Origin: Candidatus Omnitrophota bacterium
Lineage (GTDB): Bacteria > Omnitrophota > Gorgyraeia > Zapsychrales > Fredricksoniimonadaceae
Assembly: GCA_903860135.1 (NCBI GenBank)
Contig: CAIOPG010000017.1
Location: 203,364 to 267,363, forward strand
Reading direction: 5' to 3'
DNA length: 64,000 bases
How positions within the stretch are numbered: position 1 is the stretch's first letter; every line of letters starts with the position of its first letter. Of the stretch, positions 10,256 through 26,726 are shown piece after piece. The notes under the pieces were generated by a model. The model did not search any database. It was given only the letters and a program-made list of their open reading frames with translations, and was not told the DNA's origin. A program made the translations under genes and the position numbers.

Positions 10256-10270
10256 GGGCGCCTCCTCTGG

Positions 10271-11491: not shown

Positions 11492-12495
11492 GACCTCGGA
11501 TTGGCATGCAGGTCAAACAGGAAGCCTACCAGCATATACGACATGAGAAATAACCATAACGCCAGCTCGGGATTGAAGAAAGCCACGATCGTTGCCTCAC
11601 CGCAGACACACGCGCGGAAATTCATTTTCAACGACGCATAGGTCTTTTCTCCGGTAGCATGGCAATAGTAAAGGAACCCGGTCCAGGCCTGCATCAAAAT
11701 TGTCAAACAGCCTAGGATCACAAAAGTGCTGTTGATCGACACCTCGAGCATATGCGTGGCGCGCAAGATGAAAAATGTTACCGTCGGCAGGAATGTCGCA
11801 AAAAGCGCTATCAGGCGCGCCTTATTGATCCCGTAGCGGACAACAAGGGTTTCCTTCCCGGCCGCTTTATCCCCTTCATAATCCTTGAAATAGGTGTAGA
11901 ACGTCATCAGGCCGTTAATGATCAGGATAAGCAATAATGCGGAAGTACGGTGCGACGCCAGGAAGGATGCCTGGGTCGGGCCGCAGGCATAGAACCCGTA
12001 GAAAGGCGCCATGGTGATCATCAGCCCGAAAACAATATTACCAAGGATGCCATGCCCTTTGGCGTATTCATAAACAATGTTAAATATCACACCGGCCAAA
12101 AGAAAGATCACCGCCACCGGCTCCAGATACAACCACGTCACCGCCGCTGCAAGGATCAACATAACGATCGAAAGCCCCAGCGCCTTGTTGGCATCGAGTT
12201 CACCGGTCACCATGGGGCGTTCGGGCGCGTTGATCCTGTCCTCTTTAAGCCCCAGGTAATCATTGATGATCTGGTTGATCCCCCAGCTTAAAAACAGCAG
12301 GCACAGGATAACGATCTTCTTTTCATCACCAGGCAGAACTTCAATCGTCCTTTCCGGATGATGCCTGGCCAGCAATTCATAATAAGCCACGCCGATCCAC
12401 CCGGCTATCCCGGTCACAAAGGAATAATAAAGCCGCATTGATTTGATATATGCCGTGATGAACTTGATAAAGACCTCCCTGGTATCAGACCCCAT
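11488..12495 (-). CDS. UbiA-family aromatic/lipid prenyltransferase (integral membrane)
   Basis: Polytopic; first Asp-rich motif NDYLGLKED and second DYEGDKAAGKET (DxxxD...G..T) typical of UbiA superfamily. Confidence 0.65.
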   Translation of the reverse strand: MGSDTREVFIKFITAYIKSMRLYYSFVTGIAGWIGVAYYELLARHHPERTIEVLPGDEKKIVILCLLFLSWGINQIINDYLGLKEDRINAPERPMVTGELDANKALGLSIVMLILAAAVTWLYLEPVAVIFLLAGVIFNIVYEYAKGHGILGNIVFGLMITMAPFYGFYACGPTQASFLASHRTSALLLILIINGLMTFYTYFKDYEGDKAAGKETLVVRYGINKARLIALFATFLPTVTFFILRATHMLEVSINSTFVILGCLTILMQAWTGFLYYCHATGEKTYASLKMNFRACVCGEATIVAFFNPELALWLFLMSYMLVGFLFDLHANPRS

Positions 12496-12505
12496 CGTTA
12501 TAGAA

Positions 12506-12997
12506 TCAAGCCTTCAACCCATGGAACCACGTGTGCATCATGCCCGCCAGGGCCTTTTGCTCTGACGAAGAGATCTTGCCCATCAAATGTTCAACGGTCT
12601 TGATATACCCCGGCCAGGCGTCATCAAGCAGGCGCGACCCGCGCGCGGAGACCCGGATCACCTTGACCCGCTTGTCGCCGGAACGCGACGAACGCTCGAT
12701 CAATTTCTCACGCTCCAGTTTGTCCAGCAGGCGCGTCATGTTCGACGCTGTGACCATGAGCCGCTTGCCGATATCACACTGACTCAACCCGACATCCCCG
12801 CCCTGATGCTTGATGATCATCAGCACATTCATCTTCGCCGGCGTCAGGTCAAAGGTGTCCAGGTATTTCGAGACCTTGTCGAACAGGACGGTATACACCA
12901 GCACCAGCCCGTAAAAAGCTTCCTCGTAATACTGCCCCTTGCCCGCCTTGATCCCGAAAGCTTCCAGATAATCCATAGCCCCCTCCATGTCTGGCAT
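12506..12997 (-). CDS. MarR family transcriptional regulator (longest ORF extends to 13144 but overlaps miaB; likely start at MPDM/MEGAM)
   Basis: Winged-helix MarR core (LSQCDIGKRLMVTASNMTRLLDKLEREKLIER...DKRVKVIRVSARG). Confidence 0.7.
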   Translation of the reverse strand: MPDMEGAMDYLEAFGIKAGKGQYYEEAFYGLVLVYTVLFDKVSKYLDTFDLTPAKMNVLMIIKHQGGDVGLSQCDIGKRLMVTASNMTRLLDKLEREKLIERSSRSGDKRVKVIRVSARGSRLLDDAWPGYIKTVEHLMGKISSSEQKALAGMMHTWFHGLKA

Positions 12998-13028
12998 AAC
13001 AATATCACAACTTAGTTGATATGTCAAC
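12986..13028 (-). promoter_or_regulatory. candidate sigma70-like promoter (TTGACA-N17-TATTGT) with imperfect inverted repeat TATCAAC..GTTGTGATA (putative MarR operator) immediately at marR start
   Basis: Read on minus strand at miaB/marR junction: TTGACATATCAACTAAGTTGTGATATTGTTATG. Confidence 0.3.
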
Positions 13029-14348
13029 AATCTCGCCTTTGAGCTGATGCGGGGTGGCGCGGGTGATGCGGGCGTTGAGGATATCTCCGGGTTGGGCGAT
13101 GCCGTGCGGCAGGACAACGATCTTGTTGGCGTCATTGCGGCCATAAAGGGCGTTGGCCTTGATATCCCGCGCGCTTTCGATCATGACAGGCTGTATCCGG
13201 CCAACAAGAGCTTTGTTTTTCTGAAGGGAAATATCGGTCTGGAGCCGGTTGATCCGCACGATGCGCGCGGTCTTTTGAGCTTCGGTAACATCATCCTTGA
13301 GCGTTCGCTCGGCCTCGGTGTTGGGCCTGACGGAATATTTAAACATGAACGCCGTATCAAACTGAACCTCGTGCATGAGGCGGACCGTATCTTCGAACTC
13401 GATATCTGTTTCCGTCGGAAATCCAACGATAATATCCGTCGATAAGGCGATGTCCGGGCATGCACGGCGCAAGCGTCCGACCAAAGAAATAAAATCAGCC
13501 CCCGTATAGTGCCGATTCATCAGGGCCAGGACCCGGTCATGACCCGCCTGCAGAGGTAAATGCACCTGTTTGCAAACTTTCGGATTTTCAGCAAGGACAC
13601 GGATCAGGCTGTCCGGAAAATCCTTGGGATGCGGCGATGTAAAACGGATACGCTCGATGCCCTTGACCGTTGATACAGCGCTCAGCAAAGCGGCAAAATC
13701 CTGATCTTCATGCTGATAAGAATTCACATTCTGCCCGAGCAAGGTCACCTGTTTGAAGCCTTCATCGGCCAGGCGCTTCACCTCGTCGAGAATATTGCTC
13801 ACCGACCGACTGCGTTCACGCCCGCGGGTAAAAGGCACAATGCAGAATGAACAGAAATTGTTGCACCCGCGCATGACCGCCACCCAGGCATTGATCCCTG
13901 AAGTGCGCGCCGGGTACACATCCGCATAGGTCTCAAATTCCGACAAGGTCACATCATAGCCGGAATGTTGATCGCGGGCATGGCCCGATTGACACCCCGC
14001 CGCCAGCGCCGACGCCAATAGTCCAGGCAACCGTTTATAACTGTCCGGCCCGGCCACCACATCGAGCGCCAGCGCCTTATCCTCGATCAACTCCTTGCGC
14101 AACCCCGTCGCCATGCACCCCAGGATCCCGATCACCACCGGCCGCCCCTGACGCCGGTGACGGATCTCATGCACATGCCCATACACCTTACGGTGCGCAT
14201 TCTCCCGCACCGAGCACGTATTCAAAAGGACAATATCCGCCGCCGCCTCATCATCCACAAACACATACCCCGCCTCAATAAGGATCGCCCTCACGAGCTC
14301 GGAATCGTATTCGTTCATTTGGCACCCGAAAGTCTGTAAAAATATCAT
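13005..14348 (-). CDS. miaB: tRNA-2-methylthio-N6-dimethylallyladenosine synthase MiaB
   Basis: MIFLQTFGCQMNEYDSE N-terminal MTTase domain, CNNFCSFC radical SAM motif, TRAM C-terminus. Confidence 0.85.
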   Translation of the reverse strand: MIFLQTFGCQMNEYDSELVRAILIEAGYVFVDDEAAADIVLLNTCSVRENAHRKVYGHVHEIRHRRQGRPVVIGILGCMATGLRKELIEDKALALDVVAGPDSYKRLPGLLASALAAGCQSGHARDQHSGYDVTLSEFETYADVYPARTSGINAWVAVMRGCNNFCSFCIVPFTRGRERSRSVSNILDEVKRLADEGFKQVTLLGQNVNSYQHEDQDFAALLSAVSTVKGIERIRFTSPHPKDFPDSLIRVLAENPKVCKQVHLPLQAGHDRVLALMNRHYTGADFISLVGRLRRACPDIALSTDIIVGFPTETDIEFEDTVRLMHEVQFDTAFMFKYSVRPNTEAERTLKDDVTEAQKTARIVRINRLQTDISLQKNKALVGRIQPVMIESARDIKANALYGRNDANKIVVLPHGIAQPGDILNARITRATPHQLKGEIVDISTKL

Positions 14349-14406
14349 CTTAATGCCCCACTGTTATACAGAAATATAAGACTGTTAAATGCATCGCAAC
14401 CTATAT

Positions 14407-15078
14407 TCATCTCAATTCATCAACAGAAAATTCCTTCCCATGAGATGGAAATAATATTTTCGCCCCGCTACTGATAATCCTTGCCCAGCTTTCTTTTACG
14501 ACAATGTAATCTTCAGCCTCGATCGGGTACGGCTTAACACCGAATATGTTCATGGCGGCATCTCCGCAATAAGCTTTACCGTCATCCGTAATCAATGTTA
14601 TAGAATCTGCGCTGTGCCCGGGTGTATCGACAATCACACCATTAATACCGATCTCTTTCAAAACCTCTCTGCCGTCATCCCCAATCACGATATCCGTGTC
14701 ATTTGTAAATATAGGTGAATACGAAATCCTAATGAACAACCTCAGTGCTCTATCGAGCAACTTCAAAGAAAGATTGTACTGTTTAGTCTTTGCTATCTCC
14801 GTGTTTCCATTCTTCAATAAATCTACCTGTTTCTTATGCAATATCAATTTTGCGCCCATTATCGTTCGCAATTCGTTCACAAGCGCGGCATGGTCATGGT
14901 GATGGTGTGTGACCATTATATAGTTAACTTCCCTCGGATCTATACCAGCCTCATACATCTTTCTTAAAAACACGCTCATCTTGCCGTTCCACCCGGCATC
15001 TATCAACAAATATCCACCCTTTGCCCGCAAAAGGTAATAATTGGTATCACTATATCGTATCGTTTTGTGCTCACCCAT
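14407..15078 (-). CDS. MBL-fold metallo-hydrolase
   Basis: VTHHHHDH metal-binding motif, 223 aa. Confidence 0.7.
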   Translation of the reverse strand: MGEHKTIRYSDTNYYLLRAKGGYLLIDAGWNGKMSVFLRKMYEAGIDPREVNYIMVTHHHHDHAALVNELRTIMGAKLILHKKQVDLLKNGNTEIAKTKQYNLSLKLLDRALRLFIRISYSPIFTNDTDIVIGDDGREVLKEIGINGVIVDTPGHSADSITLITDDGKAYCGDAAMNIFGVKPYPIEAEDYIVVKESWARIISSGAKILFPSHGKEFSVDELR

Positions 15079-15134
15079 AATTCATTTCCGAAATTATTGC
15101 TCGTCCATCGGTTATAATTAACGGGACACAATAC

Positions 15135-15413
15135 TTATTTCCCCATCCGCCATTTGGCTGGCTTCCCCTTGCCAAGACAAACGATCTTCTTTTCAGCCTT
15201 GAGTGTCCGGAAGACTTTACGGATCATATCAGGATCGATGCCGGAACACGCCCCCCTAACTTCAGTCATCGAAAAATCACCCTGCTGTTTCAGGATCACA
15301 TCCCGAACGATTTCGGTTTTTGCCCCTCTGCGAACAGACAACTCTCCCGCCCGTTCACTGAACTCTTTATACGCTGTCAAAACAGTCACAAGAAAATAAT
15401 GCACCCACGGCAT
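15135..15413 (-). CDS. hypothetical protein (92 aa)
   Basis: ORF only; basic C-terminus; no recognisable motif. Confidence 0.25.
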   Translation of the reverse strand: MPWVHYFLVTVLTAYKEFSERAGELSVRRGAKTEIVRDVILKQQGDFSMTEVRGACSGIDPDMIRKVFRTLKAEKKIVCLGKGKPAKWRMGK

Positions 15414-15530
15414 GACATTGTGACGGCTCTCATGCTATTGACGGGAACTTATATTTAGAGTTTTATCAATAATAGTGTCAGTTCTCGACTACCCGATGCC
15501 TTGCAGGCACTTGACTAATAATTCCCCATG

Positions 15531-16526
15531 TCAATTCAATTTATTGATCAAATTCACAACCAGCGCCGCTATAACATCTTTTTCCTTTGCCTGACTCTCG
15601 GCGATCAGAAGTGTTATCGCGACCAGCGCATTATCCGCGATGCGCTTGCCCCCGTCAGCCTTGTACAGTATCCTGTTCCGATCAAGGAACCACACGAACA
15701 GGGCGGCCGCAATGCGCTTATTGCCGTCAGAAAATGCATGGTTCTTAACGACCAGATAAAGCAAATTGGCCGCCTTTTCTTCCACGCTGGAATAAAGATC
15801 TTTCCCGCCGAAGGTCTGGTAAACAGCACCCAGGGCACTCTTAAAGGAGGCGTCTTTCTCATTGCCGAACAAGCCGCTGACCCCAAATTTCTGCCGCATC
15901 TGGTCGATCACCCTTAAGCCTTCTTCATAGGTCAACTGATAGCACTCTTTAGCGGTAGACGACTTGATCCGGGTCCGCCCGTGATCATAATCATCCAGAA
16001 CATCCAGGCCATAACTGTAATCACGAATGACCTCGAACAACCCTTTAGCTTCATCGCTAGTCAAAGCCTTGCGCTCGCTCACATCCGCCAGCAATTTCAC
16101 TGCCTGCTGAAGGGTCTTTAGACTGGCCGTATGTTCTTTAAGCCTCTTATCATTGATCGTATACCCCTGAATCAAATGCTGCTTCAAGACATTCGTGGCC
16201 CAGATGCGAAATTGTGTCCCGCGCTTTGATTTAACCCGGTAACCAACAGAGATGATAACGTCCAAGTTATAAAAGACGGTCTCGTACGCTTTACCGTCGC
16301 TAGCAGTTATCCGGAAATTCCGGATAACTGACGACTTAACGAGCTCTTTTTCTTTAAAAATGTTCCCAATGTGCTCATTAATGGTGCGTAGATCTTTACT
16401 AAAAAGCTCTGCCATTTGCTTTTGAGAGAGCCAAACAGTTTCATCCTGTAACTTTACCTCAACAGAAACACCTACCCCCTGCTGGCGAAAAACAATCAAA
16501 TCTGTCTTTTTTACTTTATCATCCAT
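15531..16526 (-). CDS. RhuM-family / Fic-Doc domain fusion protein (Doc-like toxin domain)
   Basis: N-terminal RhuM-like region (YNLDVIISVGYRVKSKRGTQFRIWAT); C-terminal HAFSDGNKR Fic/Doc motif. Confidence 0.7.
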   Translation of the reverse strand: MDDKVKKTDLIVFRQQGVGVSVEVKLQDETVWLSQKQMAELFSKDLRTINEHIGNIFKEKELVKSSVIRNFRITASDGKAYETVFYNLDVIISVGYRVKSKRGTQFRIWATNVLKQHLIQGYTINDKRLKEHTASLKTLQQAVKLLADVSERKALTSDEAKGLFEVIRDYSYGLDVLDDYDHGRTRIKSSTAKECYQLTYEEGLRVIDQMRQKFGVSGLFGNEKDASFKSALGAVYQTFGGKDLYSSVEEKAANLLYLVVKNHAFSDGNKRIAAALFVWFLDRNRILYKADGGKRIADNALVAITLLIAESQAKEKDVIAALVVNLINKLN

Positions 16527-16554
16527 AAATTATCTCCAAAATCCTCAATATCAT

Positions 16555-16590
16555 CGTGCGTATCTTGCACATACGGTCAACCGTAGGTAG
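16555..16590. repeat. partial copy of recurring intergenic motif (TACGGTYGACCG..GTGCA..ATCTTA on coding strand) upstream of Fic/Doc gene
   Basis: Aligns to copies at 18115-18157 and 22851-22894. Confidence 0.45.
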
Positions 16591-16690
16591 TAATATGTAC
16601 GACTTTCCCGAACTCTTTGGAATTAATTGACTTATGTTGCATTTCAACTTGTCCTTCACTAATCCAATGGACTGTTACTACGACAGAAAT

Positions 16691-18055
16691 CTATCTATCC
16701 CTGCGTGATGCTCTCTTTAACGCCTCAACAAATCTTGGATTTATATCTCTGCCCAATGATTCAGCCTTGTGCAAATCATCCCACGCCTCATCATATTCTT
16801 TTTTCAAATAAAATGCTGACGACCGATTAATAAACGCTTCAGAAAAATTAGGGTTTAATTGAATGGCCTTATTGAAGTCCAAAATGGCCTGGTCAATATC
16901 GCCTTTGTTTAAATACCCGAACCCTCGATTATGGTAAGCATTGGCATCACGGGGGTTTAATTCTATAGCTTTGTTATAGTCGGAAATGGCTCGACCGTGG
17001 TCATTACTGCTTTGATAGCACACTCCTCGATTATAGTAAACCAGCGCATCAGCAGGGTTTAGTGCAATAGCCCGATTATAGTCAGAAATAGCTCGATCAA
17101 AGTTGCCTATATTTTGATAAACAAGCCCTCGATTATTGAAAGCATCCGCGTCATTAGGATTTAATTCTATAGCTCTACTATAGTCGGAAACGGCTTGGTC
17201 AAGGTTGCTCATTTTTTGATAGACCGCTCCTCGAGCGTAATAGGCATTGGCCAAATTAGGATTTAATCCGACAGCCTTATTAAAATCAGCAATGGCCTGC
17301 TCAAAGTTCCCTTTTTCCGAGTAAGCGTTACCTCGATTAGCAAACACGTCAGCATTATCTGGCTCTAATTCTATGACCTTGCTGTAATCCGAAATGGCCA
17401 GGTCAAAATTGCCCTGAGCTTTATAAACAAGCCCTCGATGATGGTAGACTAGTGCATCTTTAGGATTTAGCTCTATGGCCTTGCTATAGTCAGAAATCGC
17501 CTGAGCATCGTCACCCTTCTTGCCATAAACAAACCCCCTATTAGCATAGGCAATAGCATAATCAGGGGCTAATTCTATAGCTTTGCTATAGTCCAATAGA
17601 GCTTGGTCAAAGTTACCTTTCTTCTTGTAGAAAACACCGCGACTGTTATAGGCATCTGCGTAAGCAGGATCTAATTCTATGGCTTTACTATATTCTGCCA
17701 TAGCCCCGTCAAAGTTTTGTTTTTCCTCATATTCCAGCCCCCTATCATGCGCTTCCTTTGCAGCTTGCCGGTCATTTGAAGAAGTATTGACTGTGGGCCC
17801 TGAAACCTCTAAGATTTTTTGCTCAACCACAACCGTCTTATTGGGCAAAGCTCTCAGTGTTTCAGCCTGATCTTTTCTAATCATGCTAAAAGGAATTGTC
17901 ACTGTTTTGCCGTTGACGTCTTTGAGAGTGACATCGCTATCTGTCTTCTCAAGGATTTCGCCCTTTTTTACAACACCTGACTTTAACTGGACATCTTCAG
18001 GGAAGGCAAGGCCCGAAACCGTCAGGAACGCAGCCAACAGAATAACCTTCTTCAT
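16691..18055 (-). CDS. secreted tetratricopeptide-repeat protein
   Basis: Signal peptide MKKVILLAAFLTVSGLA; >10 TPR units with recurring AIELNP/AY.NRG motifs. Confidence 0.75.
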   Translation of the reverse strand: MKKVILLAAFLTVSGLAFPEDVQLKSGVVKKGEILEKTDSDVTLKDVNGKTVTIPFSMIRKDQAETLRALPNKTVVVEQKILEVSGPTVNTSSNDRQAAKEAHDRGLEYEEKQNFDGAMAEYSKAIELDPAYADAYNSRGVFYKKKGNFDQALLDYSKAIELAPDYAIAYANRGFVYGKKGDDAQAISDYSKAIELNPKDALVYHHRGLVYKAQGNFDLAISDYSKVIELEPDNADVFANRGNAYSEKGNFEQAIADFNKAVGLNPNLANAYYARGAVYQKMSNLDQAVSDYSRAIELNPNDADAFNNRGLVYQNIGNFDRAISDYNRAIALNPADALVYYNRGVCYQSSNDHGRAISDYNKAIELNPRDANAYHNRGFGYLNKGDIDQAILDFNKAIQLNPNFSEAFINRSSAFYLKKEYDEAWDDLHKAESLGRDINPRFVEALKRASRRDR

Positions 18056-18063
18056 TTACTCAC

Positions 18064-18122
18064 TCCAATCAATCGACATTGTTAAGCCCGTAAATCCGTC
18101 TCAAGAATACTCCAAAAGCCGT
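18064..18122. repeat. ~58 bp 5' leader/RBS segment of TPR gene, duplicated in degenerate form at 18394-18450
   Basis: Two aligned intergenic segments (~65% identity); second copy followed on minus strand by GGGGAAATGAAGAAACTTTATTAG (MKKLY-stop) mimicking the TPR gene start MKKVILL. Confidence 0.4.
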
Positions 18123-18157
18123 AAGATAGTGCACCCATCGGTCAGCCGTAGGTTGCT
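18115..18157. repeat. recurring ~42 bp intergenic motif, copy B (aaagccgtaagatagtgcacccatcggtcagccgtaggttgc)
   Basis: 37/42 identical to copy at 22851-22894; ~60 bp upstream of TPR gene start. Confidence 0.55.
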
Positions 18158-18476
18158 GGGAAGACTTTCTTATTCACAATTACTCTACCCATGAGCAGTT
18201 ACATCAAAATATTTTCCTTATATGACATTTTAAATACCCTAAGAACCATACTCGTTGATCGGCACGTGTTCAAAAGGCCACACAATTTATTATCTACATG
18301 CCTGCGTACATCCACCATCACAAACCTTCTTGTATAACCTATCCGCCTCGGAGAAATTCCTTTCTTTTGCTAATAAAGTTTCTTCATTTCCCCTTCAATC
18401 ACTCGACAATGTCAGACCAGTAAATCCTCTTCAAAAACGCGAAAATCGGGACACACTATTATTTCTATCTTGCCCC

Positions 18477-18803
18477 TCAATCGCCACTCTTCTTCAGCCG
18501 ATCCTTGCCCTTCTTAGTTAAACGATATTTCTGCAACCGACTATTAGGCTTATCGGGAATAGTAAATTCCACCAAAGAATCCGATACAAGTTTCTTTAAA
18601 ACATTCTTGAGCTGTCCGGAAACCTGCCGCTGACCCAACTCCTTCGATATATGAGATAAAGGCAAAGAACCATCCTTTAACAGGAACAAAACATGTTCCT
18701 CTAATGACTTGTACTGTTCTTGTACTGGTCTTGTACTGGTCTTCGGCTGCGACTTCGGCTGTGAATCTACCTTTGCTAGAGCATTCTTTCGCCAAACGGT
18801 CAA
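18477..18803 (-). CDS. hypothetical basic protein (108 aa) containing in-frame tandem nucleotide repeats
   Basis: ORF; 3 x 11-nt and 2 x ~10-nt tandem repeats inside coding sequence; alternative overlapping ORF 18550-18816 also possible. Confidence 0.3.
   Translation of the reverse strand: MTVWRKNALAKVDSQPKSQPKTSTRPVQEQYKSLEEHVLFLLKDGSLPLSHISKELGQRQVSGQLKNVLKKLVSDSLVEFTIPDKPNSRLQKYRLTKKGKDRLKKSGD
18708..18763. repeat. short tandem repeats (3 x cttgtactgKt, 2 x cttcggctg) inside the 108-aa ORF
   Basis: Visible directly in sequence. Confidence 0.6.
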
Positions 18804-18857
18804 AATAAAGAATCAAACACGATCAGCAGCACCCCCGCTATTTTTCTGAACATCATT

Positions 18858-20627
18858 TTAAGCTCCATGTTGTTTCTCCATCTCTTTGAACATCTTGCCG
18901 ATCGTATCGTTAATCTCGACCATTTTCCGGCATGTATCGAGCAAGGCCTGAAAGATATTGCCGGGATCATCCGTTGGAAGCGTCCCTAAATAACCCTTCA
19001 GATCCATAACAACAGGCGTGTTCAAAAGTCCTTCATTGAGCGCAGCCCAATCTTTAGGCAAAGTAGACAGCGCACTTTCTTCCGCCACGTCCCACGTGCT
19101 TCCGGCTGTCCCGTTGTCGATCCTGGCCTTCACCTCATTGTAAGAACCCATGATGATGCCTTTATCAGGAATATCGTCGATGATCGCCAGCGCAACGGCA
19201 AGCGTTTGACGGGCGCCCTCGACATCTCTTGCCTGAGATTGTGCTTCTGCAATCTCCTGCTTGGCGAGACTGGCTTGAAAGGGCGAACCTTGGATGCTGT
19301 CCGCTGTTCTCAACGCGGCTTCAATGTCCCCGGCGCGGGCCAGCCCTAAAGAAAGATATTGTTTGGCAATGGCTTTAAAATTGGGCTCCGTCGAATCTGG
19401 CATGCCATCAGCGATCACAACGCCATCAGCAAGAGTTTGTAACGCTCCCGCAAGGTCCCCCGCCTTCGTCTGCTCGCGCGCAACCCAATTCTTGGCCGTA
19501 CTTTTCGTGAAAAGATCATGGATGGCATCAACGGTATGAAGCGCCAGCTTTACATCCCCTGCCTTAGCCTGCGCCTCGGCAATGGAACGCAACAAACTGT
19601 CCTTGGTCGTGGCATCCCCGATCAGTTCGAGCGTTCGTAACGCAGCGGCAAAATCACCCCGTTTGAGCTGCGCTTGCGCGACCTTTTCTTTCGCAGAGCT
19701 TTTCGAACTGTACTCATCTTCCTGGATGTTATCGACGGTTTTAAATGCCGCCGCGTCATTTCCGGCCCTGGCCCAGAGATCCGCGACATTCACCAGATCG
19801 AAATATCTTGAATGCGCGTCCATGCCCTGGTTGGCAATTTTTTCGACGAGCGCAATGAAACGGGACAGGGCTCGCTCGCGAAGTTGCCGGATCTGTTCTT
19901 TGATGATTAACGCCCGAGAGGAATCAGGATCAGCGGCCAAATACGCGCCATACCACGCCATAGCCCTGAACTCCCTTCCCGGGATCCTTGATTCTGCCAG
20001 GCCAAGGTTATAGTCAATGTCCGCGTCATCCGGCGCGATCTTGCGCGCTTCTTCAAAGTTCAGGATGGCGGATAGATAATCTTTTTGTTTCGCCGCCACA
20101 TAACCCTTATTCATAGTGGCGTTCACGGCCTCTTGCTGGGAGGGGGCAAGATCAAGAAGATACAACCCGTCTGGAAACTCCATATCCAGAATAAACCGGC
20201 AAACAGTGGCCGCTGACTCCATCCGCACCGCTTCATCTGAATCCACCGAACCGGCATCCATGTCAAACCTGATGGTGTTGCCATTCTGCCAGGTCATATT
20301 TACGACCCGCTCACCCTGCGGATCCTTGGGATCAATGGTCGACGCGCTGATAGCTGCTACGTGCAAAGAATCCAATATAGCCAATATTCTCCTGGCTCGG
20401 GTCGAGCCCTCCCAGACCTCTCCTTCTTTCTGCCGGTGATCCATATAAAGCGCCCGCAGCGTGGAATATTCCGGTGTCTCCTCCATGATCCGCGTTACCG
20501 TAACGGCCAGGGGCCCAAACTTGTCGGCAGGTTGATCTGTCTGTGCCCAGGAAGGAATGCTAGTGGCAGAAGAAATAATGATAAATAATAAAGTGTTCCG
20601 GAAAGACCGGCTTAAAGGCAAACTCAT
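18858..20627 (-). CDS. secreted hypothetical protein with degenerate ~35-aa alpha-helical repeats (K/RAGDxxxALxTxDxI)
   Basis: Signal peptide; at least 4 copies of AGD..AL.T motif (HEAT/TPR-like); first gene of 3-gene overlapped operon. Confidence 0.5.
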   Translation of the reverse strand: MSLPLSRSFRNTLLFIIISSATSIPSWAQTDQPADKFGPLAVTVTRIMEETPEYSTLRALYMDHRQKEGEVWEGSTRARRILAILDSLHVAAISASTIDPKDPQGERVVNMTWQNGNTIRFDMDAGSVDSDEAVRMESAATVCRFILDMEFPDGLYLLDLAPSQQEAVNATMNKGYVAAKQKDYLSAILNFEEARKIAPDDADIDYNLGLAESRIPGREFRAMAWYGAYLAADPDSSRALIIKEQIRQLRERALSRFIALVEKIANQGMDAHSRYFDLVNVADLWARAGNDAAAFKTVDNIQEDEYSSKSSAKEKVAQAQLKRGDFAAALRTLELIGDATTKDSLLRSIAEAQAKAGDVKLALHTVDAIHDLFTKSTAKNWVAREQTKAGDLAGALQTLADGVVIADGMPDSTEPNFKAIAKQYLSLGLARAGDIEAALRTADSIQGSPFQASLAKQEIAEAQSQARDVEGARQTLAVALAIIDDIPDKGIIMGSYNEVKARIDNGTAGSTWDVAEESALSTLPKDWAALNEGLLNTPVVMDLKGYLGTLPTDDPGNIFQALLDTCRKMVEINDTIGKMFKEMEKQHGA

Positions 20628-21655
20628 TCGGCTCCCGTTGGACTTAGAAATTCTATAACAGTTTTCTCATCAGGCGTCACTGTAACGCCGTTCTCTTTAA
20701 GCAACATCCTGAGTTCTTTTTCGTTGAGATAAAGCCTTTGCTGCACACCTGCTTCATTGGAGTCGATCATCTCATACCAGGTCCCGCCTTCATGCTGAAA
20801 TGTCTTTGTCAGAACAACTTCATGCCCATCCTTCATCGCCCCATCATAAGGGACAAAATTCACCATCACCGGCCGGCCGCTTTCTAACGTCTTAACAAAT
20901 TCCCCGCTTGGCACGATCCTGACTTCCCCTAAAGCTTCCGCAACCAGGATCACCTCGCCGCCATTGAGCCCGCCCTTTTCAATGGTCTGCTGCACATCCC
21001 GACGCGCATCAACAGAGCGCCACGTGGCATCTTTAATAAATTCTGCCGCCCTGGCAGCGGCCACGCCGTATGGCACACCCGCCGCATTTGCCAAAGAAAA
21101 GACCGCACAGTCCTGATAGTTCGTCTGTCCACCGGCACCAGGCATCCCGGGCCCCTTTCCTTGAGATGCTTCCCACGCAAAGACGTCGTTATCACGGCGG
21201 GCTTGCACATCCTTCCAGATCAGCTGAACATCATCACGGCTTGCGTCATCGCCATCGCCTTTAAGCGTGTTCAACGCGGTCACGGCACGATCCTTTTCCT
21301 TATCCTGCCACGGCAAGGTTTTAACATGCGCTATCATGGCATCCCGAACCCACTTCTCCGCAGCATCAAGCACGTCCTTATTAAAAGCGAGGACCACAAC
21401 AATATAATTTGCCCGCTGGGTCTGAATGGCGTCAAACTCTTTATCCGTCTGATTTTCCGTAGTCTTGGCCGAGAACGCATCTGCAACGGCCTTAAAAGCT
21501 GCATACGCGCTATCAAGGGTCAGCGCTTGCTGATCAAACTGAATTTTGTCTGCAGCGGTTAGGGTAAAAGGAACATCTTCCCGGACGGGTATCAGATCTT
21601 CGGCGTAAGCTGTGGCACAAGACATGATCAAAAGCGCTGTTATAAAAGCTTTCAT
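20624..21655 (-). CDS. secreted hypothetical protein; C-terminal half has papain-like Q-x5-C ... H arrangement (tentative cysteine peptidase-like)
   Basis: Signal peptide MKAFITALLIMSCATAYA; GGQTNYQDCAVF and DGHEVV motifs; start overlaps upstream gene stop. Confidence 0.4.
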   Translation of the reverse strand: MKAFITALLIMSCATAYAEDLIPVREDVPFTLTAADKIQFDQQALTLDSAYAAFKAVADAFSAKTTENQTDKEFDAIQTQRANYIVVVLAFNKDVLDAAEKWVRDAMIAHVKTLPWQDKEKDRAVTALNTLKGDGDDASRDDVQLIWKDVQARRDNDVFAWEASQGKGPGMPGAGGQTNYQDCAVFSLANAAGVPYGVAAARAAEFIKDATWRSVDARRDVQQTIEKGGLNGGEVILVAEALGEVRIVPSGEFVKTLESGRPVMVNFVPYDGAMKDGHEVVLTKTFQHEGGTWYEMIDSNEAGVQQRLYLNEKELRMLLKENGVTVTPDEKTVIEFLSPTGAE

Positions 21656-21665
21656 GGGATATCCT

Positions 21666-22694
21666 CTAGTTTCTCTTCTTTTCAGTACTGATCACCCGAT
21701 GCAACACCTTGATCTTCTCTTCTTTCTTATAAACATCAAATAACTTTTCTTCTTTGATCTTATTTTGCGCGTCGATCGCGCTGGTGAGATCCTGCACAAC
21801 AGCAGAATCCTTAGCGACGATTCGTTCTGAAGTAAGCTTAGCGATCGCCTTATCAATAACGGCCTGCTCGGTCTTTAAATCGGCAAGCTCAGCCGTGGCC
21901 TTGAGCATGCGCGGGTCCGTGCTGGCCACATCTTTCGGTGGAGCAACTGTCACGGTCCCCATCAGCCGCCGATCGTTATCAAATCCTTGACGAGCTTGTT
22001 CGCTGATCGCCTCAAGGTCATTGGGATCACCAAATTCCAGAACCCCAGGTGCCTTGACAACCGTTCCTGCCGTTGCAGGACCTGTATCCAAATTGGCAGT
22101 AAATTCACGGATACGCGCATTGATCTTTGTTACGGCCGCAATGTCTTCTTTTTCCCGCACCCGCGCATTTGCTTCAGCCGCCTTACGCTCGCGCGCTTCA
22201 CGGGCAGGGCGTTCACGCTCTGCTTTCTCAGCAGCTTCAACACTTTCCACATGACGGAGATTCTCATCTGTAAAAGCCTTGGGCTCCATGCTGATCGCAT
22301 GACGTAATTCAGCGGCAGTTTTAGCCTCTGTCCATGCGATCACTGCTTTCGCTGACGAGATCCATCTGCGTAAAGTGGGCCCATCAGCAACCTTTTGCCG
22401 CTCTTGGCAAAGCCGTAAATATTCACGGAAATCTTTTCTAGCCCATACCGCTTGCACCTGTTCATCAAAAGCCCTGGCAATCGCATTTAACTCCGCGACC
22501 TGCTCCGGGGAAACTTCCCACTCCTTCTCACGGCGCTGCCGTGGTTCATTATAAACAGGAGACGGACTATCATCACCGCAGTTCATGCAAACACCCGTTG
22601 GATTCTGCCAATCATTCGCCTGAACAAGAACGGAAGGAAAAAACAGCAGGCCGCCAACAATCAAAGCTACACTTCCCGATAACTTTATTTTCAT
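21666..22694 (-). CDS. secreted hypothetical protein, charged coiled-coil rich (ERERPAREARERKAAE)
   Basis: Signal peptide, low-complexity E/R/K/A helical region. Confidence 0.45.
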   Translation of the reverse strand: MKIKLSGSVALIVGGLLFFPSVLVQANDWQNPTGVCMNCGDDSPSPVYNEPRQRREKEWEVSPEQVAELNAIARAFDEQVQAVWARKDFREYLRLCQERQKVADGPTLRRWISSAKAVIAWTEAKTAAELRHAISMEPKAFTDENLRHVESVEAAEKAERERPAREARERKAAEANARVREKEDIAAVTKINARIREFTANLDTGPATAGTVVKAPGVLEFGDPNDLEAISEQARQGFDNDRRLMGTVTVAPPKDVASTDPRMLKATAELADLKTEQAVIDKAIAKLTSERIVAKDSAVVQDLTSAIDAQNKIKEEKLFDVYKKEEKIKVLHRVISTEKKRN

Positions 22695-22850
22695 CTTTTT
22701 TCCCAGTCAATTTTAAACCCGTCAAAAAACCTTATAGGCACTATCATTTTCCAATAATTACCGACCAAATTCAATTTTATCTGCGACAGAAATCGTAATG
22801 GAAATATCTGCTTTATTGCTCTTTTCCGTAAACTGTCGTAAGAAATCGCC

Positions 22851-22894
22851 GCAAAGCCATAAGATAGTGCGTCCATCGGTCAGCCGTATGTAAC
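22851..22894. repeat. recurring ~42 bp intergenic motif, copy C
   Basis: caaagccataagatagtgcgtccatcggtcagccgtatgtaac; ~160 bp upstream of the 21666-22694 gene start. Confidence 0.55.
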
Positions 22895-23097
22895 TAGCAA
22901 AATTCTCTTATCTTGTTTCATATCAGCACTCTGTAATTTCATGGCCAAACTTAAAAATTTCTTAAACCGATGCATGGATACGGCTCTCCTCACGCATTTA
23001 ATCTTTATTCGATTCTCCTTGCCCTCCATCTTTGCTCCAGAAAAAAGTTTAACCGGGAATTTTTCTCCGGACTCATGATCTTTTGATCTGTTATTCA

Positions 23098-23867
23098 TCA
23101 AACCAGCTCAAGCCGCTGGAATCGCTCGATCAGAAGCTTGTCGAACGCTTCAGCCAATTCTTCGGGAAGGAATGACGCCGCAAGCCTTGAAGGGAACAGC
23201 TCTTTCTTACCCGCAAACTTCTCGAATCTGATCTTCTCCGGGATGCCGTTGTATTTATCCTGCTTCTCCAGGATCTGGGCAAAGTCCTCCTGGTGAACTT
23301 TCCGTCGCCCTTCCCGATCGAAACGCTTGACCACATAGGCCAGGCTCTTATCCTTCAGGTGCACCAGGCAATGCGCGGGCACATCGATCCCAATATCCTC
23401 GGCGATCGTCATGCAAAGCTCTTCGTTCTCCGGCAGATTTGCGAACGCCTGCACCTGCGGCTTAAGGATATATTGGCGACCCGCACCAGTGACTTCCAGA
23501 TGCGAATCACCTGCCCGGTCAGCCAATTTCACGGCAAGTTTGAGCTGCACGCCAGAGATCGACATCTTTCCAACCATCTCCTGAGCCTTTAAAGACACCC
23601 CGGCCAGCGTCAGGTCAATGCAAGGATCCCTGTCGATACCAAAGACTTTACGCCATAATGATCGTTCGTTCCTCATACGGCACCACTCTCTTTCACAGTA
23701 ACAGCGCAGATCGTGCTCTCACCTGTCACCAATAAGATCCCGAATTCATCGGACGGGTCAATTTTCCTTGTCGCGCACACGATGTCCCTGTACCATCCTT
23801 CTGAATTTAACCCGGTAAAGAATGGAAAAAGTATTGTTGATTCAAAAGGCGCCTCCCGCAAAGGCAA
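23098..23867 (-). pseudogene. hipA: hipA-like toxin gene remnant: frameshifted N-terminus (23673-23867 fragment) and truncated before the catalytic kinase motifs
   Basis: FFTGLNSEGWYRD...ICAVTV (HipA N-terminal region) in one frame, MSISGVQLKL...VKRFDREG in the next; total ~260 aa versus ~440 aa for HipA, no D-x-H-x-K-N loop. Confidence 0.5.
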
Positions 23868-23987
23868 AGAAAGAGAAACCGCCTTTCCGCTCTTGAGATA
23901 CGCGGGGTCATAGGTGAACCTGTACCCCGCGTCCGTTTCCTCAAGAACCCCGACAAGGCGGTCGTGATAAAAACATCAGCTTTTCTT

Positions 23988-24194
23988 TTATTGTTCCCTG
24001 CCATTACGCACGACCTCAAGATGGTGCCCCAAGAATTCAAGGACCACATTGACCTTGTCCAGACGCACCGTGTTCTTCCCCTGCTCGAGCTCTCTCACGA
24101 AACGGAGCCCGACACCGGCACGCTTCGCGAACTCGATCTGGTCGAGACCTGCTTTCTTTCGCAGAACCTGTATTATCTTCCCGATACTTTTCAT
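23988..24194 (-). CDS. hipB: HipB-like XRE-family HTH antitoxin/transcriptional regulator
   Basis: LDQIEFAKRAGVGLRFVRELEQGKNTVRLDKVNVVLEFLG HTH_XRE pattern; immediately upstream of hipA remnant. Confidence 0.6.
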   Translation of the reverse strand: MKSIGKIIQVLRKKAGLDQIEFAKRAGVGLRFVRELEQGKNTVRLDKVNVVLEFLGHHLEVVRNGREQ

Positions 24195-24419
24195 GATTAG
24201 AATATACACCCTAAAGGGTATAAAACAAGATTTAATATTGAAAGTCTGGAGAAACAATCATCCAAACACCATAAATACACCCTATCGGGTGTATTTTAGA
24301 TTTTACTTCTGAGCTGTTATCTATTCAATTCCATACGCCCAAAGGTAAAATCTTTTCCCTCCCTTCGGCCATATCAAATATCAATGATGACCGGCTCGTT
24401 AACCAATTGATAATCCTCA

Positions 24420-24989
24420 TCAAGGGCTGAACAGTTGATGAAAATCGATAGATAGGACTTCAATACTTTTAACAAGATATTGAAAAGACCCTTCAACGCT
24501 ACGGCCTTCGGTCACAACTGTGATCTGTGGTGATCCAGGGATATCATAGGGATCATCGATCCCGGTAAAATGTTTGATCTCCCCGGCCCTGGCCTTCTTG
24601 TAAAGTCCTTTAGGGTCGCGGCGCTCACACTCCGTCAACGAAGCTTCCACATAAACTTCGATAAAATTACGGCAGCTGCGCCGCACGGCCATGCGTGCGT
24701 CGTTATAGGGTGAAATGAACGAGGCCACCACGATCACCCCGTTGCGCTCGAGCAAAGAAGCGATATAACCAACACGCATGATGTGCTCATCACGGTCCTT
24801 CTTCGAGAAACCTGTCAGAGGGAATACCGCACGCACCGCATCCCCGTCAAGATGTTCGACACGAAATCCCTTGGCCTTGTAAAACGCACACAGCTTCTCG
24901 GCCAATGTGCTTTTACCGGAACCGGACAGCCCCGTTAACCACACCACAAAACCCTTGTTTTTTTCTTCTGGCATCATCAGAAACCCCAA
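24420..24989 (-). CDS. cysC: adenylyl-sulfate (APS) kinase
   Basis: GLSGSGKSTLA P-loop, LDGD motif, 189 aa; start overlaps TpsB stop. Confidence 0.8.
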   Translation of the reverse strand: MGFLMMPEEKNKGFVVWLTGLSGSGKSTLAEKLCAFYKAKGFRVEHLDGDAVRAVFPLTGFSKKDRDEHIMRVGYIASLLERNGVIVVASFISPYNDARMAVRRSCRNFIEVYVEASLTECERRDPKGLYKKARAGEIKHFTGIDDPYDIPGSPQITVVTEGRSVEGSFQYLVKSIEVLSIDFHQLFSP

Positions 24990-26677
24990 CGTACGGCAAG
25001 GTGGAACTGAGCCGCATGGTTGTCGGAAGGGTCATCGCCCAGCGGAAACCCTGTGTCAAAGGTGATATTGGAATCAGGGCTTAAATAAAACCTGAGACCG
25101 ATGCCAGCCCCGACCAAGGTTGTATCTTTTAACGACGACACCTGCTCTCGCTTACGATTAAAAACTCGCCCGGCATCAATGAACGTCGCCAATGAAAGCG
25201 CATCACGCCAGGTCTTGTCCTTCATGCCGACAACGTGCCAGGTCTCAGGGATAAAATAAACAGGGATACGCCATTCCTGCGACACACTAAAGCCGCTGTC
25301 GCCGGAGGCGTCGTTCTCGGGATAGCCCCTTACCGAATACATCCCCCCCAGGTTAAACTGCTCCAGAGAATTCAGGGCCGCATCGCTGAACTGCCCTGAA
25401 GCCTGCGAAATCAGCGCCATTCCCAGCGGCAAGCGCTGGATCCTCGCGAGATTGAGCGTCTCGTACACAAAACTTCCGCCGGAATCCATACGGCTGGCAA
25501 GGCTGTCATGGTGAGATGAAGATCCCATGAACCCTGCAGCACCTGTGTGCACATCAGCACCTGCAAAAGTGCGGCCGGTTGCATCATTAAACGTCACCCT
25601 CGGCCCGGCCACAAGCACCCGGTTACGGTCAAACGAAAACTTGTCCTTCAAAACGTCGGTCTTGGAATCCTTGATCTCAAAACGAACATCACCCTCCAGT
25701 CTCACCCTTGTATCTTCAACAAACGTGTGCGTCCATCCGGAGATAAAACTTATCAAATTGCCTGTCACATGCAGATCATACAAATTCTTTTGAAGACGGC
25801 TTTGCGCCCTACCCACATCCAAATGAAACACATCTCTCGTCTTGGGGATGGGCATTTCATAATGCATGGAACTCGCGTAAAGTGCCCCTGCCTCAGCCAT
25901 TGAAAATGTTGACTTAAGGCTATCCCCATGCCCGGTGAGATTATTATCAGTCAGGTGCAGGAGGTACCTGTCTCCACCGGTCAGCTTGGATCCGGTTAAA
26001 TTATACTCCAGCGACGCATGCAGCGGCTGCTGATCCTGAACTTTCATCAGAATATCGGTCGTACCAGGTTCATGTCCCGGCGCAAGGTAGGTCGTGGCAA
26101 AACGATCCGGCTGGGTGTTAATCTTGCGCAAGGCGTTCTCCAGATCCCCCATTTCAAAATGATCGCCACTGTTGAGTCCCAAGGCATTCCGGTACAGGCT
26201 TTTGCTAAACCAGCGCTCCCCCTCAACAGACACCTTACCGACGCGCACTTCGAGGATATGGATCGATACCACCCCGTCTACGACCTTCTGGGGTGGAATA
26301 TAAGCCCGGCTTGTTGTATACCCATGCTTATGGTAAAGAATAGTGATGCGATCAGCGAATTTCTGAAGATCGGCCAAGGACATCATCGTCCCTTCAAGTT
26401 GATGTGCCTCGGCCAGTAAATCATCGGACTTAAAAAGCCCGTTCCCCTCAATGACGATTTTCTTGACCAGAAATTGAATACCTTCCGCCACAACCTTCTT
26501 CTCTTCTTTCTTTTCTATGACAACTTTCTTCGAAGGCTGTACGGAGGCCTTATTCGCGCGCTCCAAAGGATTGGTCTGGGTGGTCAATTGACGCTGAACG
26601 ACTTCATTGACAGGTTGGGCAAAGACAAAAGCTGTCTGTACCAAGCATACACACAACAAAATTATGGATATTCGCAT
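24977..26677 (-). CDS. two-partner secretion outer-membrane transporter (TpsB; ShlB/FhaC/HecB family)
   Basis: Signal peptide, POTRA region, Omp85-type C-terminal beta-barrel ending ...LAVRWGF. Confidence 0.8.
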   Translation of the reverse strand: MRISIILLCVCLVQTAFVFAQPVNEVVQRQLTTQTNPLERANKASVQPSKKVVIEKKEEKKVVAEGIQFLVKKIVIEGNGLFKSDDLLAEAHQLEGTMMSLADLQKFADRITILYHKHGYTTSRAYIPPQKVVDGVVSIHILEVRVGKVSVEGERWFSKSLYRNALGLNSGDHFEMGDLENALRKINTQPDRFATTYLAPGHEPGTTDILMKVQDQQPLHASLEYNLTGSKLTGGDRYLLHLTDNNLTGHGDSLKSTFSMAEAGALYASSMHYEMPIPKTRDVFHLDVGRAQSRLQKNLYDLHVTGNLISFISGWTHTFVEDTRVRLEGDVRFEIKDSKTDVLKDKFSFDRNRVLVAGPRVTFNDATGRTFAGADVHTGAAGFMGSSSHHDSLASRMDSGGSFVYETLNLARIQRLPLGMALISQASGQFSDAALNSLEQFNLGGMYSVRGYPENDASGDSGFSVSQEWRIPVYFIPETWHVVGMKDKTWRDALSLATFIDAGRVFNRKREQVSSLKDTTLVGAGIGLRFYLSPDSNITFDTGFPLGDDPSDNHAAQFHLAVRWGF

Positions 26678-26726
26678 ACTGACCTTTTTAAGTTTAACCA
26701 GAATAGTACCACTTCAAACCCCAAGA

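Follow-up and report, generated by a model that had tools for sequence, protein, structure and literature searches.

SXT/R391 elements reportedly reside in the 5′ end of prfC, an observation attributed to Hochhut and Waldor in 1999. Islands and prophages with DAI tyrosine integrases integrate in the 5′ end of dusA, replace it and leave a remnant at the far junction, and rimO, which is MiaB-like, is a mobile-element target in Polaromonas (PMC4482086). According to two accounts of the staphylococcal SCC and SCCmec elements (bioRxiv 10.1101/336396; PMC11470126), tandem cassettes occupy one site inside rlmH (orfX), with CcrAB or CcrC as large serine recombinases; the direct repeats at their junctions contain the end of rlmH, many psi-SCC elements are recombinase-less and moved in trans, and the cargo includes defence and accessory genes.

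The system described here unites features known separately: tandem cassettes of the SCC kind together with a serine recombinase that resembles Ccr, the exchange of a gene's 5′ end as at dusA and prfC, and tiny cassettes like those of integrons. Within the 64,000 nucleotides of Omnitrophota DNA that were analysed (the window), a conserved motif occurs three times. We conclude, with a probability of about 0.78, that these copies are attL-type junctions of tandem gene cassettes inserted into the 5′ end of miaB, which encodes the tRNA ms2i6A37 methylthiotransferase. The data that support this reading are the anatomy of the junctions, their adjacency to miaB in 7 genomes, a breakpoint that falls on the core, the mosaicism of the two halves, and the adjacency of a recombinase gene (one locus) or of its 3′-end remnants (two loci). 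They point to a hotspot at miaB where this uncultivated phylum, the Omnitrophota, collects cassettes, with a large serine recombinase as the probable agent. The layout of the array is given in Table 1.

Table 1. Junctions, cassettes and miaB in the window, in the order in which they are met on the minus strand.
Feature	Position	Strand	Content	Detail
Junction C, first in array	22826..22921	(-)	Displaced miaB 5′ ORF and type-1 arm	ORF from ATG 22921 to TGA 22882-22880, encoding MKQDKRILLVTYG then stop; core TG 22882-22881; type-1 cassette arm 22880->22826 (ACCGATGGACGCACTATCTTATGG...GTTTACGG)
Cassette 1	18264..22825	(-)	61-aa ORF; genes of 342, 343 and 589 aa; Fic-like_C fragment; junction remnant	Weak TPR hits for the 589-aa gene product; Fic-like_C fragment 18477-18803; decayed junction remnant 18380-18465
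Junction B	18087..18263	(-)	Long left arm, displaced 5′ ORF and type-1 arm	Left arm begins at 18263 (GCCGATCAACGAGTATGG...); ORF from ATG 18192 or GTG 18177 to TGA 18144-18142, encoding (MGRVI)VNKKVFPATYG then stop; core TG 18144-18143; type-1 arm 18142->18087
Cassette 2	16643..18086	(-)	Lone gene	TPR-repeat protein, 16691-18055
Junction A	16527..16642	(-)	Displaced 5′ ORF and type-2 arm	ORF from ATG 16642 to TGA 16579-16577, encoding MQHKSINSKEFGKVVHITTYG then stop; core TG 16579-16578, within dyad TACGG-TTGA-CCGTA; type-2 cassette arm 16577->16527, reaching the Fic ATG
Cassette(s) 3	14349..16526	(-)	RhuM-Fic, 92-aa ORF, metallo-beta-lactamase-fold gene; ends at current miaB start	RhuM-Fic 15531-16526; 92-aa ORF 15135-15413; metallo-beta-lactamase-fold gene 14407-15078; possible decayed arm remnant 15095-15141
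Intact miaB	13005..14348	(-)	447 aa, MIFLQTFGCQMNEYDS...	Translation; TIGR01574; homologues named MiaB (Candidatus Omnitrophota); candidate live attachment site (attR/attB-like) about 14348-14316; first-Cys TG 14324-14323

The original prediction described three copies of a ~40-bp motif, and all three are present. Copies B (18115-18157) and C (22851-22894) lie where they had been placed; their likeness stands, whereas the 37 identities in 42 positions first counted become 36/42 on recount of the ungapped alignment. Similarity extends past these 42 bases (59 nt at 81%, 86-87 nt at 77%), and a 29-nt core pattern found in both gave 0 matches in 100 shuffles. The shorter copy, A (16555-16590), is a genuine but more diverged relative that shares the invariant core AC-TACGG-Y-TGACCG with the other two. 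It scores E=1.5e-8 in nhmmer with a model of 11 junctions and E=1e-12 with a second model, A itself being included in both models. Scanning the 64-kb window with these models returned nothing beyond A, B and C, and the fourth-best match to the 11-junction model is the real miaB start (14352-14316, E=0.008). Each copy does lie upstream of a minus-strand gene start, as had been claimed (Fic ATG 16526, TPR ATG 18055, operon ATG 22694). The conserved unit is larger than the ~40-bp motif, at about 95-180 nt; a short ORF, conserved in the manner of coding sequence, makes up its 5′ part, and the units are members of one array that ends at miaB.

Read on the coding (minus) strand, each copy is a short ORF, for example MKQDKRILLVTYG-TGA, and each type of ORF has its counterpart among the real MiaB N-termini of Omnitrophota (…TYGCQMN). 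Identity to miaB stops at the first-Cys TG, where a conserved arm of non-miaB sequence takes over. The left half of junction C closely resembles the functional miaB start of locus L016 (P0022, MKQDKRICLITYGC; about 39/44, counted by eye), and homology of its left arm to the region upstream of that gene reaches about 22990. The left arm of junction B is homologous to L004:3167 and L013:4619, of the type MDKEIMSKKVFLSTYG followed by a stop, which is that of the real MiaB proteins P0032 and P0019. For junction A, the left half matches functional miaB starts in L020 (85% over 67 nt) and L017 (64/83). Among the other left-half types, MQHKS..HITTYG corresponds to MiaB P0029, P0004 and P0006, and MKQDKR to P0022 and P0017; N-terminal types that are displaced in some genomes are the functional ones elsewhere. 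Upstream of the TGA, codon-position entropy is 13.7 at third positions versus 7.4 and 7.1 at first and second positions, and no codon periodicity was found downstream of it. This third-position variation, together with the matches of N-terminal type, identifies the left halves as genuine miaB starts.

The gene that ends the array is intact and lies directly downstream of it on the same strand. Its product scores 448.9 bits against TIGR01574 MiaB (cut-off 355.3) and is 68% identical to an ORF at L011:1-555 and 58% identical to one at L006:2-577; the UPF0004, radical SAM and TRAM domains by which MiaB is recognised were found, the Pfam domains being seen in L001. A search of the window and of partial Omnitrophota genomes, in which copies far from miaB may have been missed, found the copies clustered next to miaB: 25 junctions in 10 loci from different Omnitrophota, all in one orientation. 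The downstream end is visible in 7 of the 10 loci, and the array adjoins miaB in 7/7; the arrays of L004, L012 and L013 run out at contig or locus limits and stand outside this count. These seven loci (the window, L006, L011, L016, L018, L021 and L022) hold 18 junctions, all upstream of miaB and on its strand, as co-oriented hybrid sites built up in tandem at one target. Genes upstream of miaB vary among genomes, and the downstream order nadA-hydrolase-metW is conserved. L014 has variable content upstream of miaB, yet neither a junction nor a recombinase remnant.

Comparisons between loci place the breakpoint at the core. The RhuM-Fic cassette is common to the window (16579->15533) and L018 (3463-4509), at 76% over 1054 nt; homology begins at the T of the core TGA (16579) and stops at the Fic stop codon (15533), and the left halves at this junction are unrelated. 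Junction C and L011:4307 have the same left half, GATATGAAACAAGATA, joined to type-1 and type-2 right halves, respectively. Left and right halves thus reassort at a fixed point, and the points at which homology breaks off leave for the exchange only TG and 1-2 bp on either side. TG is usually followed by A; type 3 arms have A or T there, so that this base is not strictly bound to arm type and the crossover maps to about 2-4 bp only. The surrounding core, TACGG-Y-TG-A-CCGTA, forms a dyad that is perfect in copy A and partial in B and C, a modest symmetry. One junction copy has an IS21 element inside it.

A candidate enzyme of 545 aa, with Resolvase, Recombinase and Zn_ribbon_recom domains, is encoded in L017 by a gene that overlaps the miaB start; an arm like the left half of junction A overlaps the 3′ end of this large serine recombinase gene. 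In NCBIfam the enzyme comes closest to CcrB and CcrC, which it matches over its full length at 184 and 172 bits versus a cut-off of 900, and with scores so far below the family cut-offs it is not a Ccr orthologue. Remnants of the 3′ end of an L017-type gene adjoin miaB in L020 (93 aa, 73% identity) and L015 (45 aa), and an intact recombinase is present in 1 of 11 miaB loci. In the 64-kb window no recombinase was found among ORFs of at least 150 aa or by tblastn. The cassettes of the window array, having no recombinase of their own, would be fossils or else be moved by an enzyme acting in trans. The loci examined, which come from partial genomes, showed neither an excised circle nor an attP or an empty site, and the arrays could be old and immobile.

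From these arrangements we infer that cassettes would enter successively within the first dozen codons of miaB. Each left half would be a once-functional miaB 5′ end, consisting of a start codon and about 10-20 codons to ...T-Y/F-G, and each right half a conserved arm that moves with its downstream cassette, the two being joined at the first-Cys TG. The cassette arm would supply the next base, usually an A, so that TGC or TGT (Cys) would become TGA and truncate the displaced ORF. The far end of the incoming cassette would bring a replacement miaB 5′ end, so that miaB stays intact and older starts are pushed upstream, and an intact miaB with displaced starts upstream of it is what is found. As to chemistry, the enzyme would most likely be a large serine recombinase for which the TG in the partly dyad-symmetric core serves as a 2-bp crossover.

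The same junctions could have arisen by another mechanism, with the serine recombinase as cargo: through a tyrosine recombinase (dusA- or integron-like), or by repeated homologous or illegitimate recombination between miaB 5′ fragments. Known 5′-end-replacing islands do employ tyrosine integrases (PMC4482086), only a single intact serine recombinase was found, and left-arm similarity would be sufficient for occasional homologous exchange. However, no array locus contains a tyrosine integrase (Phage_integrase family) or IntI, an attC-like hairpin is absent, and three loci have the left arm physically joined to a serine recombinase gene or to what remains of its 3′ end. The very short exchange region (about 2-4 bp around TG) is as with serine recombinases, and homologous recombination between left halves as diverged as these would not yield a fixed breakpoint. 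We regard such a mechanism as improbable.

The leading idea of the original prediction was that the motif is an operator or promoter for a shared regulator of secreted-protein and toxin genes. The copies do lie 40-160 nt upstream of gene starts, TACGG occurs three times per unit, and the long-form left arm, which reaches about 85 nt further upstream, carries one sigma-70-like match (TTGAAA-16-TATTTT, seen in L013); expression of cassette genes from displaced miaB promoters may therefore well be a by-product. The core itself has no sigma-70 match, as had been noted from the start, and the copies are not regulon-wide: in the window, as in six further genomes, they are restricted to one array directly upstream of miaB, and the other ~57 kb of the window are free of them. 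Genes downstream are functionally unrelated across genomes, where junctions precede a methyltransferase, a Fur-ZnuA-Cbi operon, an AAA ATPase and a HigBA pair, and the apparent link to secreted proteins and toxins dissolves into incidental cargo. A 5′ part that has coding periodicity and equals MiaB N-termini is also unlike an operator, and regulation as the function of the motif is very unlikely.

A cis-acting RNA, either a structured 5′ UTR or a leader peptide that regulates the downstream gene through stalling or re-initiation at its UGA-C stop, would account for a conserved mini-ORF with a constrained amino-acid sequence and for the weak-context UGA-C stop followed 3 nt on by AUG in type-1 arms. 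Folding, however, gave copies B and C no more structure than shuffles (z = +0.6 and -0.1), with no conserved structure found. Rfam returned 0 matches over the whole window at the gathering threshold, and at E<=10 the interval 17900-18500 gave three chance hits elsewhere in the stretch, none over copy B. Moreover, TGG, TGT or TGC replaces the stop in 6 of the 25 junctions, the element is seen next to miaB only, and the constraint on the peptide is accounted for by its past role as a MiaB N-terminus. We give this reading, which the original prediction had also raised, a very slim chance. Its third suggestion, a short non-autonomous repeat, came closest in spirit, and several diverged copies per genome in several Omnitrophota, one of them containing IS21, would suit a dispersed MITE or REP-like element clustered here by chance; such an element is nevertheless highly improbable, as no terminal inverted repeats, palindromic body or inverted repeat at the sites was found, 25/25 copies found in the partial genomes share a single orientation, the copies cluster in arrays that end at miaB, and a left half that is a gene start and halves that reassort at a fixed point mark site-specific insertion junctions and not a transposing repeat.

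Insertion of cassettes at miaB thus accounts for a puzzling conserved motif as a set of recombination junctions. A full-text literature search found no report of a hotspot at the miaB 5′ end, and the first codons of miaB are a previously undescribed acquisition site for accessory genes, in a phylum that is poorly understood. The junctions provide a marker with which to locate accessory and defence genes in Omnitrophota MAGs; the arrays offer a reason why assemblies break and MiaB starts are mis-called here, and the recombinase, for which a natural attB is defined, is a candidate serine integrase for genome-engineering tests. More tentatively, and at somewhat less than even odds, the arrays may constitute an Omnitrophota gene-capture platform that resembles an integron with a different chemistry, in which a serine recombinase would put cassettes of ~0.1-5 kb, mostly recombinase-less, into miaB codons ~8-13. 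Each insertion would swap the MiaB N-terminus and give the old miaB start, along with any arm promoter, to the new cassette as an expression signal. The array would thus promote itself, and RhuM-Fic, Bro-N, TPR and other cassettes would circulate between species.

Like SCC, the miaB arrays are tandem cassettes in a conserved RNA-modification gene, with gene-end repeats at the junctions and recombinase-less elements, and CcrB and CcrC are the nearest families to the L017 enzyme. Unlike SCC, which targets the 3′ end of rlmH, they target the 5′ end of miaB, so that every insertion must bring a new start codon and N-terminus; their cassettes can be tiny (about 0.1-5 kb), and they belong to the phylum Omnitrophota. 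The 5′ end of a housekeeping gene is also hit by the dusA and prfC islands, and dusA is likewise a tRNA-modification gene. Those elements are tens of kb long, usually single and served by a tyrosine integrase, whereas the miaB arrays hold up to five small cassettes with a serine recombinase implicated. The arrays share with integrons (IntI, attI, attC) small, co-oriented, mostly promoter-less and recombinase-less cassettes that pile up at one platform, with a recombination site between successive cassettes. They differ in having no IntI, attC hairpin or R′′/R′ boxes, single strands of B and C folding like shuffles on either strand. The miaB site is instead double-stranded and gene-derived, and its platform is the start of a functional gene.

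The conserved intergenic motif of the window is a hybrid junction. In each of its three copies (A, B and C), the left half is the displaced 5′ end of a miaB gene, which encodes a tRNA ms2i6A37 methylthiotransferase, and it is joined through the TG of the first Cys codon to a right half consisting of a cassette arm. Together the copies make up an array bounded at its end by the intact miaB gene, and cassettes reappear, right arms included, beside other left halves in other genomes. The motif sequence reported in the original prediction was borne out on reading the positions of all three copies, and the likeness of B and C is real, at 36 of 42 positions instead of 37. It also extends past the core, to 59 nt at 81% and 86-87 nt at 77%. 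A 29-nt core pattern matched only B and C in the window and gave no match in 100 shuffles. Copy A is more diverged, sharing with B and C the invariant block AC-TACGG-Y-TGACCG; it was found by profile search (E = 1e-12 with one model and 1.5e-8 with an 11-junction model), both models including A itself. The 64-kb window holds no further copies beyond these three, which fall within some 10 kb of lower GC content. Every gene in the window is encoded on the minus strand, and on the coding strand A, B and C alike have an in-frame TGA after ...T-Y-G.

Relatives of the motif were sought in other genomes. An exact-pattern scan gave no match in GTDB genomes and two true relatives in JGI metagenomes (loci L004 and L006), and a looser, degenerate scan of GTDB genomes added three more (L011-L013), all from Candidatus Omnitrophota MAGs. 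Each of these loci carries several co-oriented copies within a few kb. Loci L005, L007 and L008-L010 were left out as chance matches, having the core pattern only, in GC-rich sequence. Further loci were obtained by looking up MiaB homologues that are named MiaB of Omnitrophota in their sources. The resulting collection, from partial genomes, comprises 25 junctions in 10 loci. Wherever the downstream end is visible (the window, L006, L011, L016, L018, L021 and L022), every array ends at miaB, and 18/18 junctions are upstream of miaB and co-oriented with it; the other three arrays run to a contig or locus limit. In the Omnitrophota loci compared, the genes downstream of miaB are conserved (nadA-hydrolase-metW), and those upstream are different in every genome. 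At the miaB locus of L014 there is no junction and no recombinase remnant. In another Omnitrophota genome (place CUuVAKfb), the variable genes upstream of miaB include a diversity-generating retroelement (bAvd and reverse transcriptase) and an ISL3 transposase.

Features of the miaB-proximal array, its relatives and its surroundings (window positions unless a locus is named; displaced ORFs end at a stop codon)
Feature	Position	Displaced ORF	Real MiaB N-terminus (protein)	Remarks
Junction A	16555-16590	MQHKSINSKEFGKVVHITTYG	MQHKSSNGREFGKVVHITTYGC (P0029)	
Junction B	18115-18157			
Junction C	22851-22894	MKQDKRILLVTYG	MKQDKRICLITYGC (P0022)	
Long form, B-related		MDKEIMSKKVFLSTYG	MDKEIMSKKVFLSTYGC (P0032)	
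Candidate fourth copy, D	15095-15141			possible decayed junction remnant; arm-like ACCGATGGACG..., just upstream of MBL-fold gene; 11-mer common to D and C
Decayed junction remnant	18380-18465			second copy of distal type-1 arm and TPR gene start, 78% over 50 nt
Intact miaB	13005-14348 (-)		MIFLQTFGCQMN	
nadA	2089-3180			
Cluster between miaB and nadA	3250-13144			about 10 kb
Palindrome in RhuM-Fic gene	16304-16330			near-perfect, 27 nt, CAGTTATCCGGAAATTCCGGATAACTG
Similar sequence	L021 (~4935)			GTTATCCGGAAGTTCCGGATAAC, just after Fic gene
Mini-cassette	L018:4544-4654; L021:9150-9260 and 3790			about 110 nt, between two junctions
Fragmented HipBA module	22880-24257			upstream of junction C
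APS kinase gene	24420-24989			
Secretion and arylsulfotransferase genes	24977-31361			just upstream of island
IS21-family element (istA, istB)	L004:967-3167			within junction right arm, cut after GCACT
Metagenome contig start	L019:1			exactly at miaB start; assembly break at variable junction

Candidate copy D was not detected by nhmmer.

When the copies are aligned on the TGA, a short ORF of the form M-x-K-K-[VI]-F-[IL]-x-T-Y-G-stop emerges, and its peptide reads as the typical N-terminus of MiaB-type methylthiotransferases. Real miaB genes start ...ACC TAC GGC TGC CAA ATG AAC..., and the motif is identical in kind until the TG of the first Cys codon, where it turns to A-CCG-ATG-G.... The protein encoded by the intact gene in the window scores above the TIGR01574 (MiaB) cut-off, and in an all-against-all protein comparison it shared 68% identity with an ORF lying at L011's downstream edge and 58% with an ORF in L006, which places the array directly upstream of a real miaB, on the same strand, in three genomes. 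Type for type, the displaced ORFs have counterparts among the real MiaB N-termini of other Omnitrophota. In DNA comparisons, the functional miaB start of L016 is closely similar to the left half of C, and this homology extends for roughly another 65 nt upstream; the left half of A has 85% identity over 67 nt with the functional start in L020. Each left half was thus a real miaB 5′ end at one time, which accounts for its coding periodicity: upstream of the stop, variation at third codon positions is 13.7, versus 7.4 and 7.1 at first and second positions. Downstream of the stop there is no such periodicity. Many database MiaB entries (P0003, P0014, P0023, P0028 and others, and also the window gene) have been given the internal Met of CQMNEYD as their start, so that the first cluster-binding Cys is dropped.

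Sequence comparison shows the right halves to travel with the cassette that lies downstream of them. A counterpart of the RhuM-Fic gene that follows copy A is present in L018, which comes from another Omnitrophota genome of the same habitat, and the BLAST homology between the two (1054 nt, 76%) begins in the window at 16579, where the T of the core TGA lies, and ends with the Fic stop codon at 15533; left of the core the sequences are unrelated. Conversely, junction C and the junction at L011:4307 have a common left half and right arms of different types, at least four of which occur. This reassortment confines the exchange to the core, about 2-4 bp around the TG. The arm contributes the base that follows the TG: in 19/25 junctions this is A, which produces TGA, and the remaining junctions have G, T or C, so that the stop is common and not obligatory. 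One 19-20-nt sequence in the window follows both the end of the Fic-like_C fragment and the end of a 92-aa ORF. The recurrent mini-cassette, which has no ORF, contains a GC-rich hairpin (GGCCTGCGGCC), and its left junction retains the Cys codon; it may represent an empty cassette or else a terminator module.

A candidate enzyme is found in L017: directly upstream of miaB, and overlapping the MQHKS-type miaB start, is a 545-aa gene (L017:3384-5021) whose product has Resolvase, Recombinase and zinc-ribbon domains. Its best curated-family matches, full length and well below cut-offs, are the staphylococcal cassette recombinases CcrB and CcrC, and it also matches the SPbeta and TP901-1 integrases. 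Remnants of the same type of gene abut miaB in L020 (93 aa of the 3′ end, 73% identity) and L015 (45 aa); the recombinase link is based on one intact gene and two 3′-end remnants. The left arm of copy A is homologous to this recombinase-end/miaB-start region, and its core, TACGG-TTGA-CCGTA, is a perfect dyad with TG in the centre; the core resembles a serine-integrase site. No recombinase was found among window ORFs of at least 150 aa. We propose that a large serine recombinase would insert the cassettes at the miaB-proximal site, each cassette bringing a replacement miaB 5′ end and pushing older starts upstream. Cassettes that lack a recombinase may have been moved in trans or may be fossils. 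Displaced starts may give cassettes expression signals, the sole promoter evidence being that the long left arm of L013 contains one sigma-70-like match. These partial genomes showed no excision product.

Several other readings of the motif were weighed and set aside. A selenocysteine or read-through MiaB paralogue would use the in-frame TGA, which is replaced by TGG, TGT or TGC in 6/25 junctions, and the ORFs stop within about 20 codons in all frames. A programmed +1 frameshift at GGC-UGA-C is countered by the loss of codon periodicity beyond the TGA. The C-terminus of a conserved protein ('...TYG*') is likewise improbable: the 72-aa ORF terminating within copy C is an orphan, which found only itself among 5.8 billion proteins and had no Pfam, NCBIfam or PDB match, and is probably merely the untranslated left arm of junction C. 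As a sigma-70, sigma-54 or ECF promoter, the core has inconsistent spacing between copies and no match in a promoter scan. The 5′-UTR RNA element offered in the original prediction also lost ground, since single strands of B and C, as RNA or DNA, fold no better than shuffled controls and Rfam gave no match. A tie to the three-gene operon downstream of copy C is contradicted by the sole homologous operon found (L003, 65% identity), which is without the motif. Integron attC and Xer/dif-like sites were rejected for want of a hairpin or dif-like arms, and a tRNA or tmRNA fragment serving as att site because the window has no tRNA genes. Plasmid, phage and IMG/VR viral contig collections contained no similarity to the region.

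In other Omnitrophota loci with a visible flank, nadA-hydrolase-metW follows miaB directly or after one extra gene (L018); the cluster that separates miaB from nadA in the window indicates that the 3′ flank of miaB carries an insertion as well. Its genes are MarR, UbiA, an OYE-type oxidoreductase, acyl-carrier protein, an aminotransferase, a DAG-kinase-like gene, AIRS, ketoacyl synthase, an epimerase and a radical SAM gene. On the other side, the HipBA module is broken into an HTH gene, a 64-aa Couple_hipA piece and a 192-aa HipA_C piece, after which comes the 72-aa orphan ORF. Farther upstream are a two-partner secretion pair, composed of a ShlB-type transporter and a 1544-aa exoprotein with GLUG repeats, and then two arylsulfotransferase genes.

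SXT in prfC is among the closest analogues of these arrays. So are the SCC/SCCmec composite islands at rlmH. The islands that replace the dusA 5′ end belong here too, and in that work the MiaB-like rimO gene is also a target (PMC4482086). We found no description in the literature of a system like the present one. Integron arrays are analogous in outline only. What sets the Omnitrophota case apart from SCC/SCCmec, the dusA islands, SXT-prfC and integrons is its combination of a candidate serine recombinase, a 5′-end target that has to be restored with every insertion, and arrays of up to five very small cassettes.
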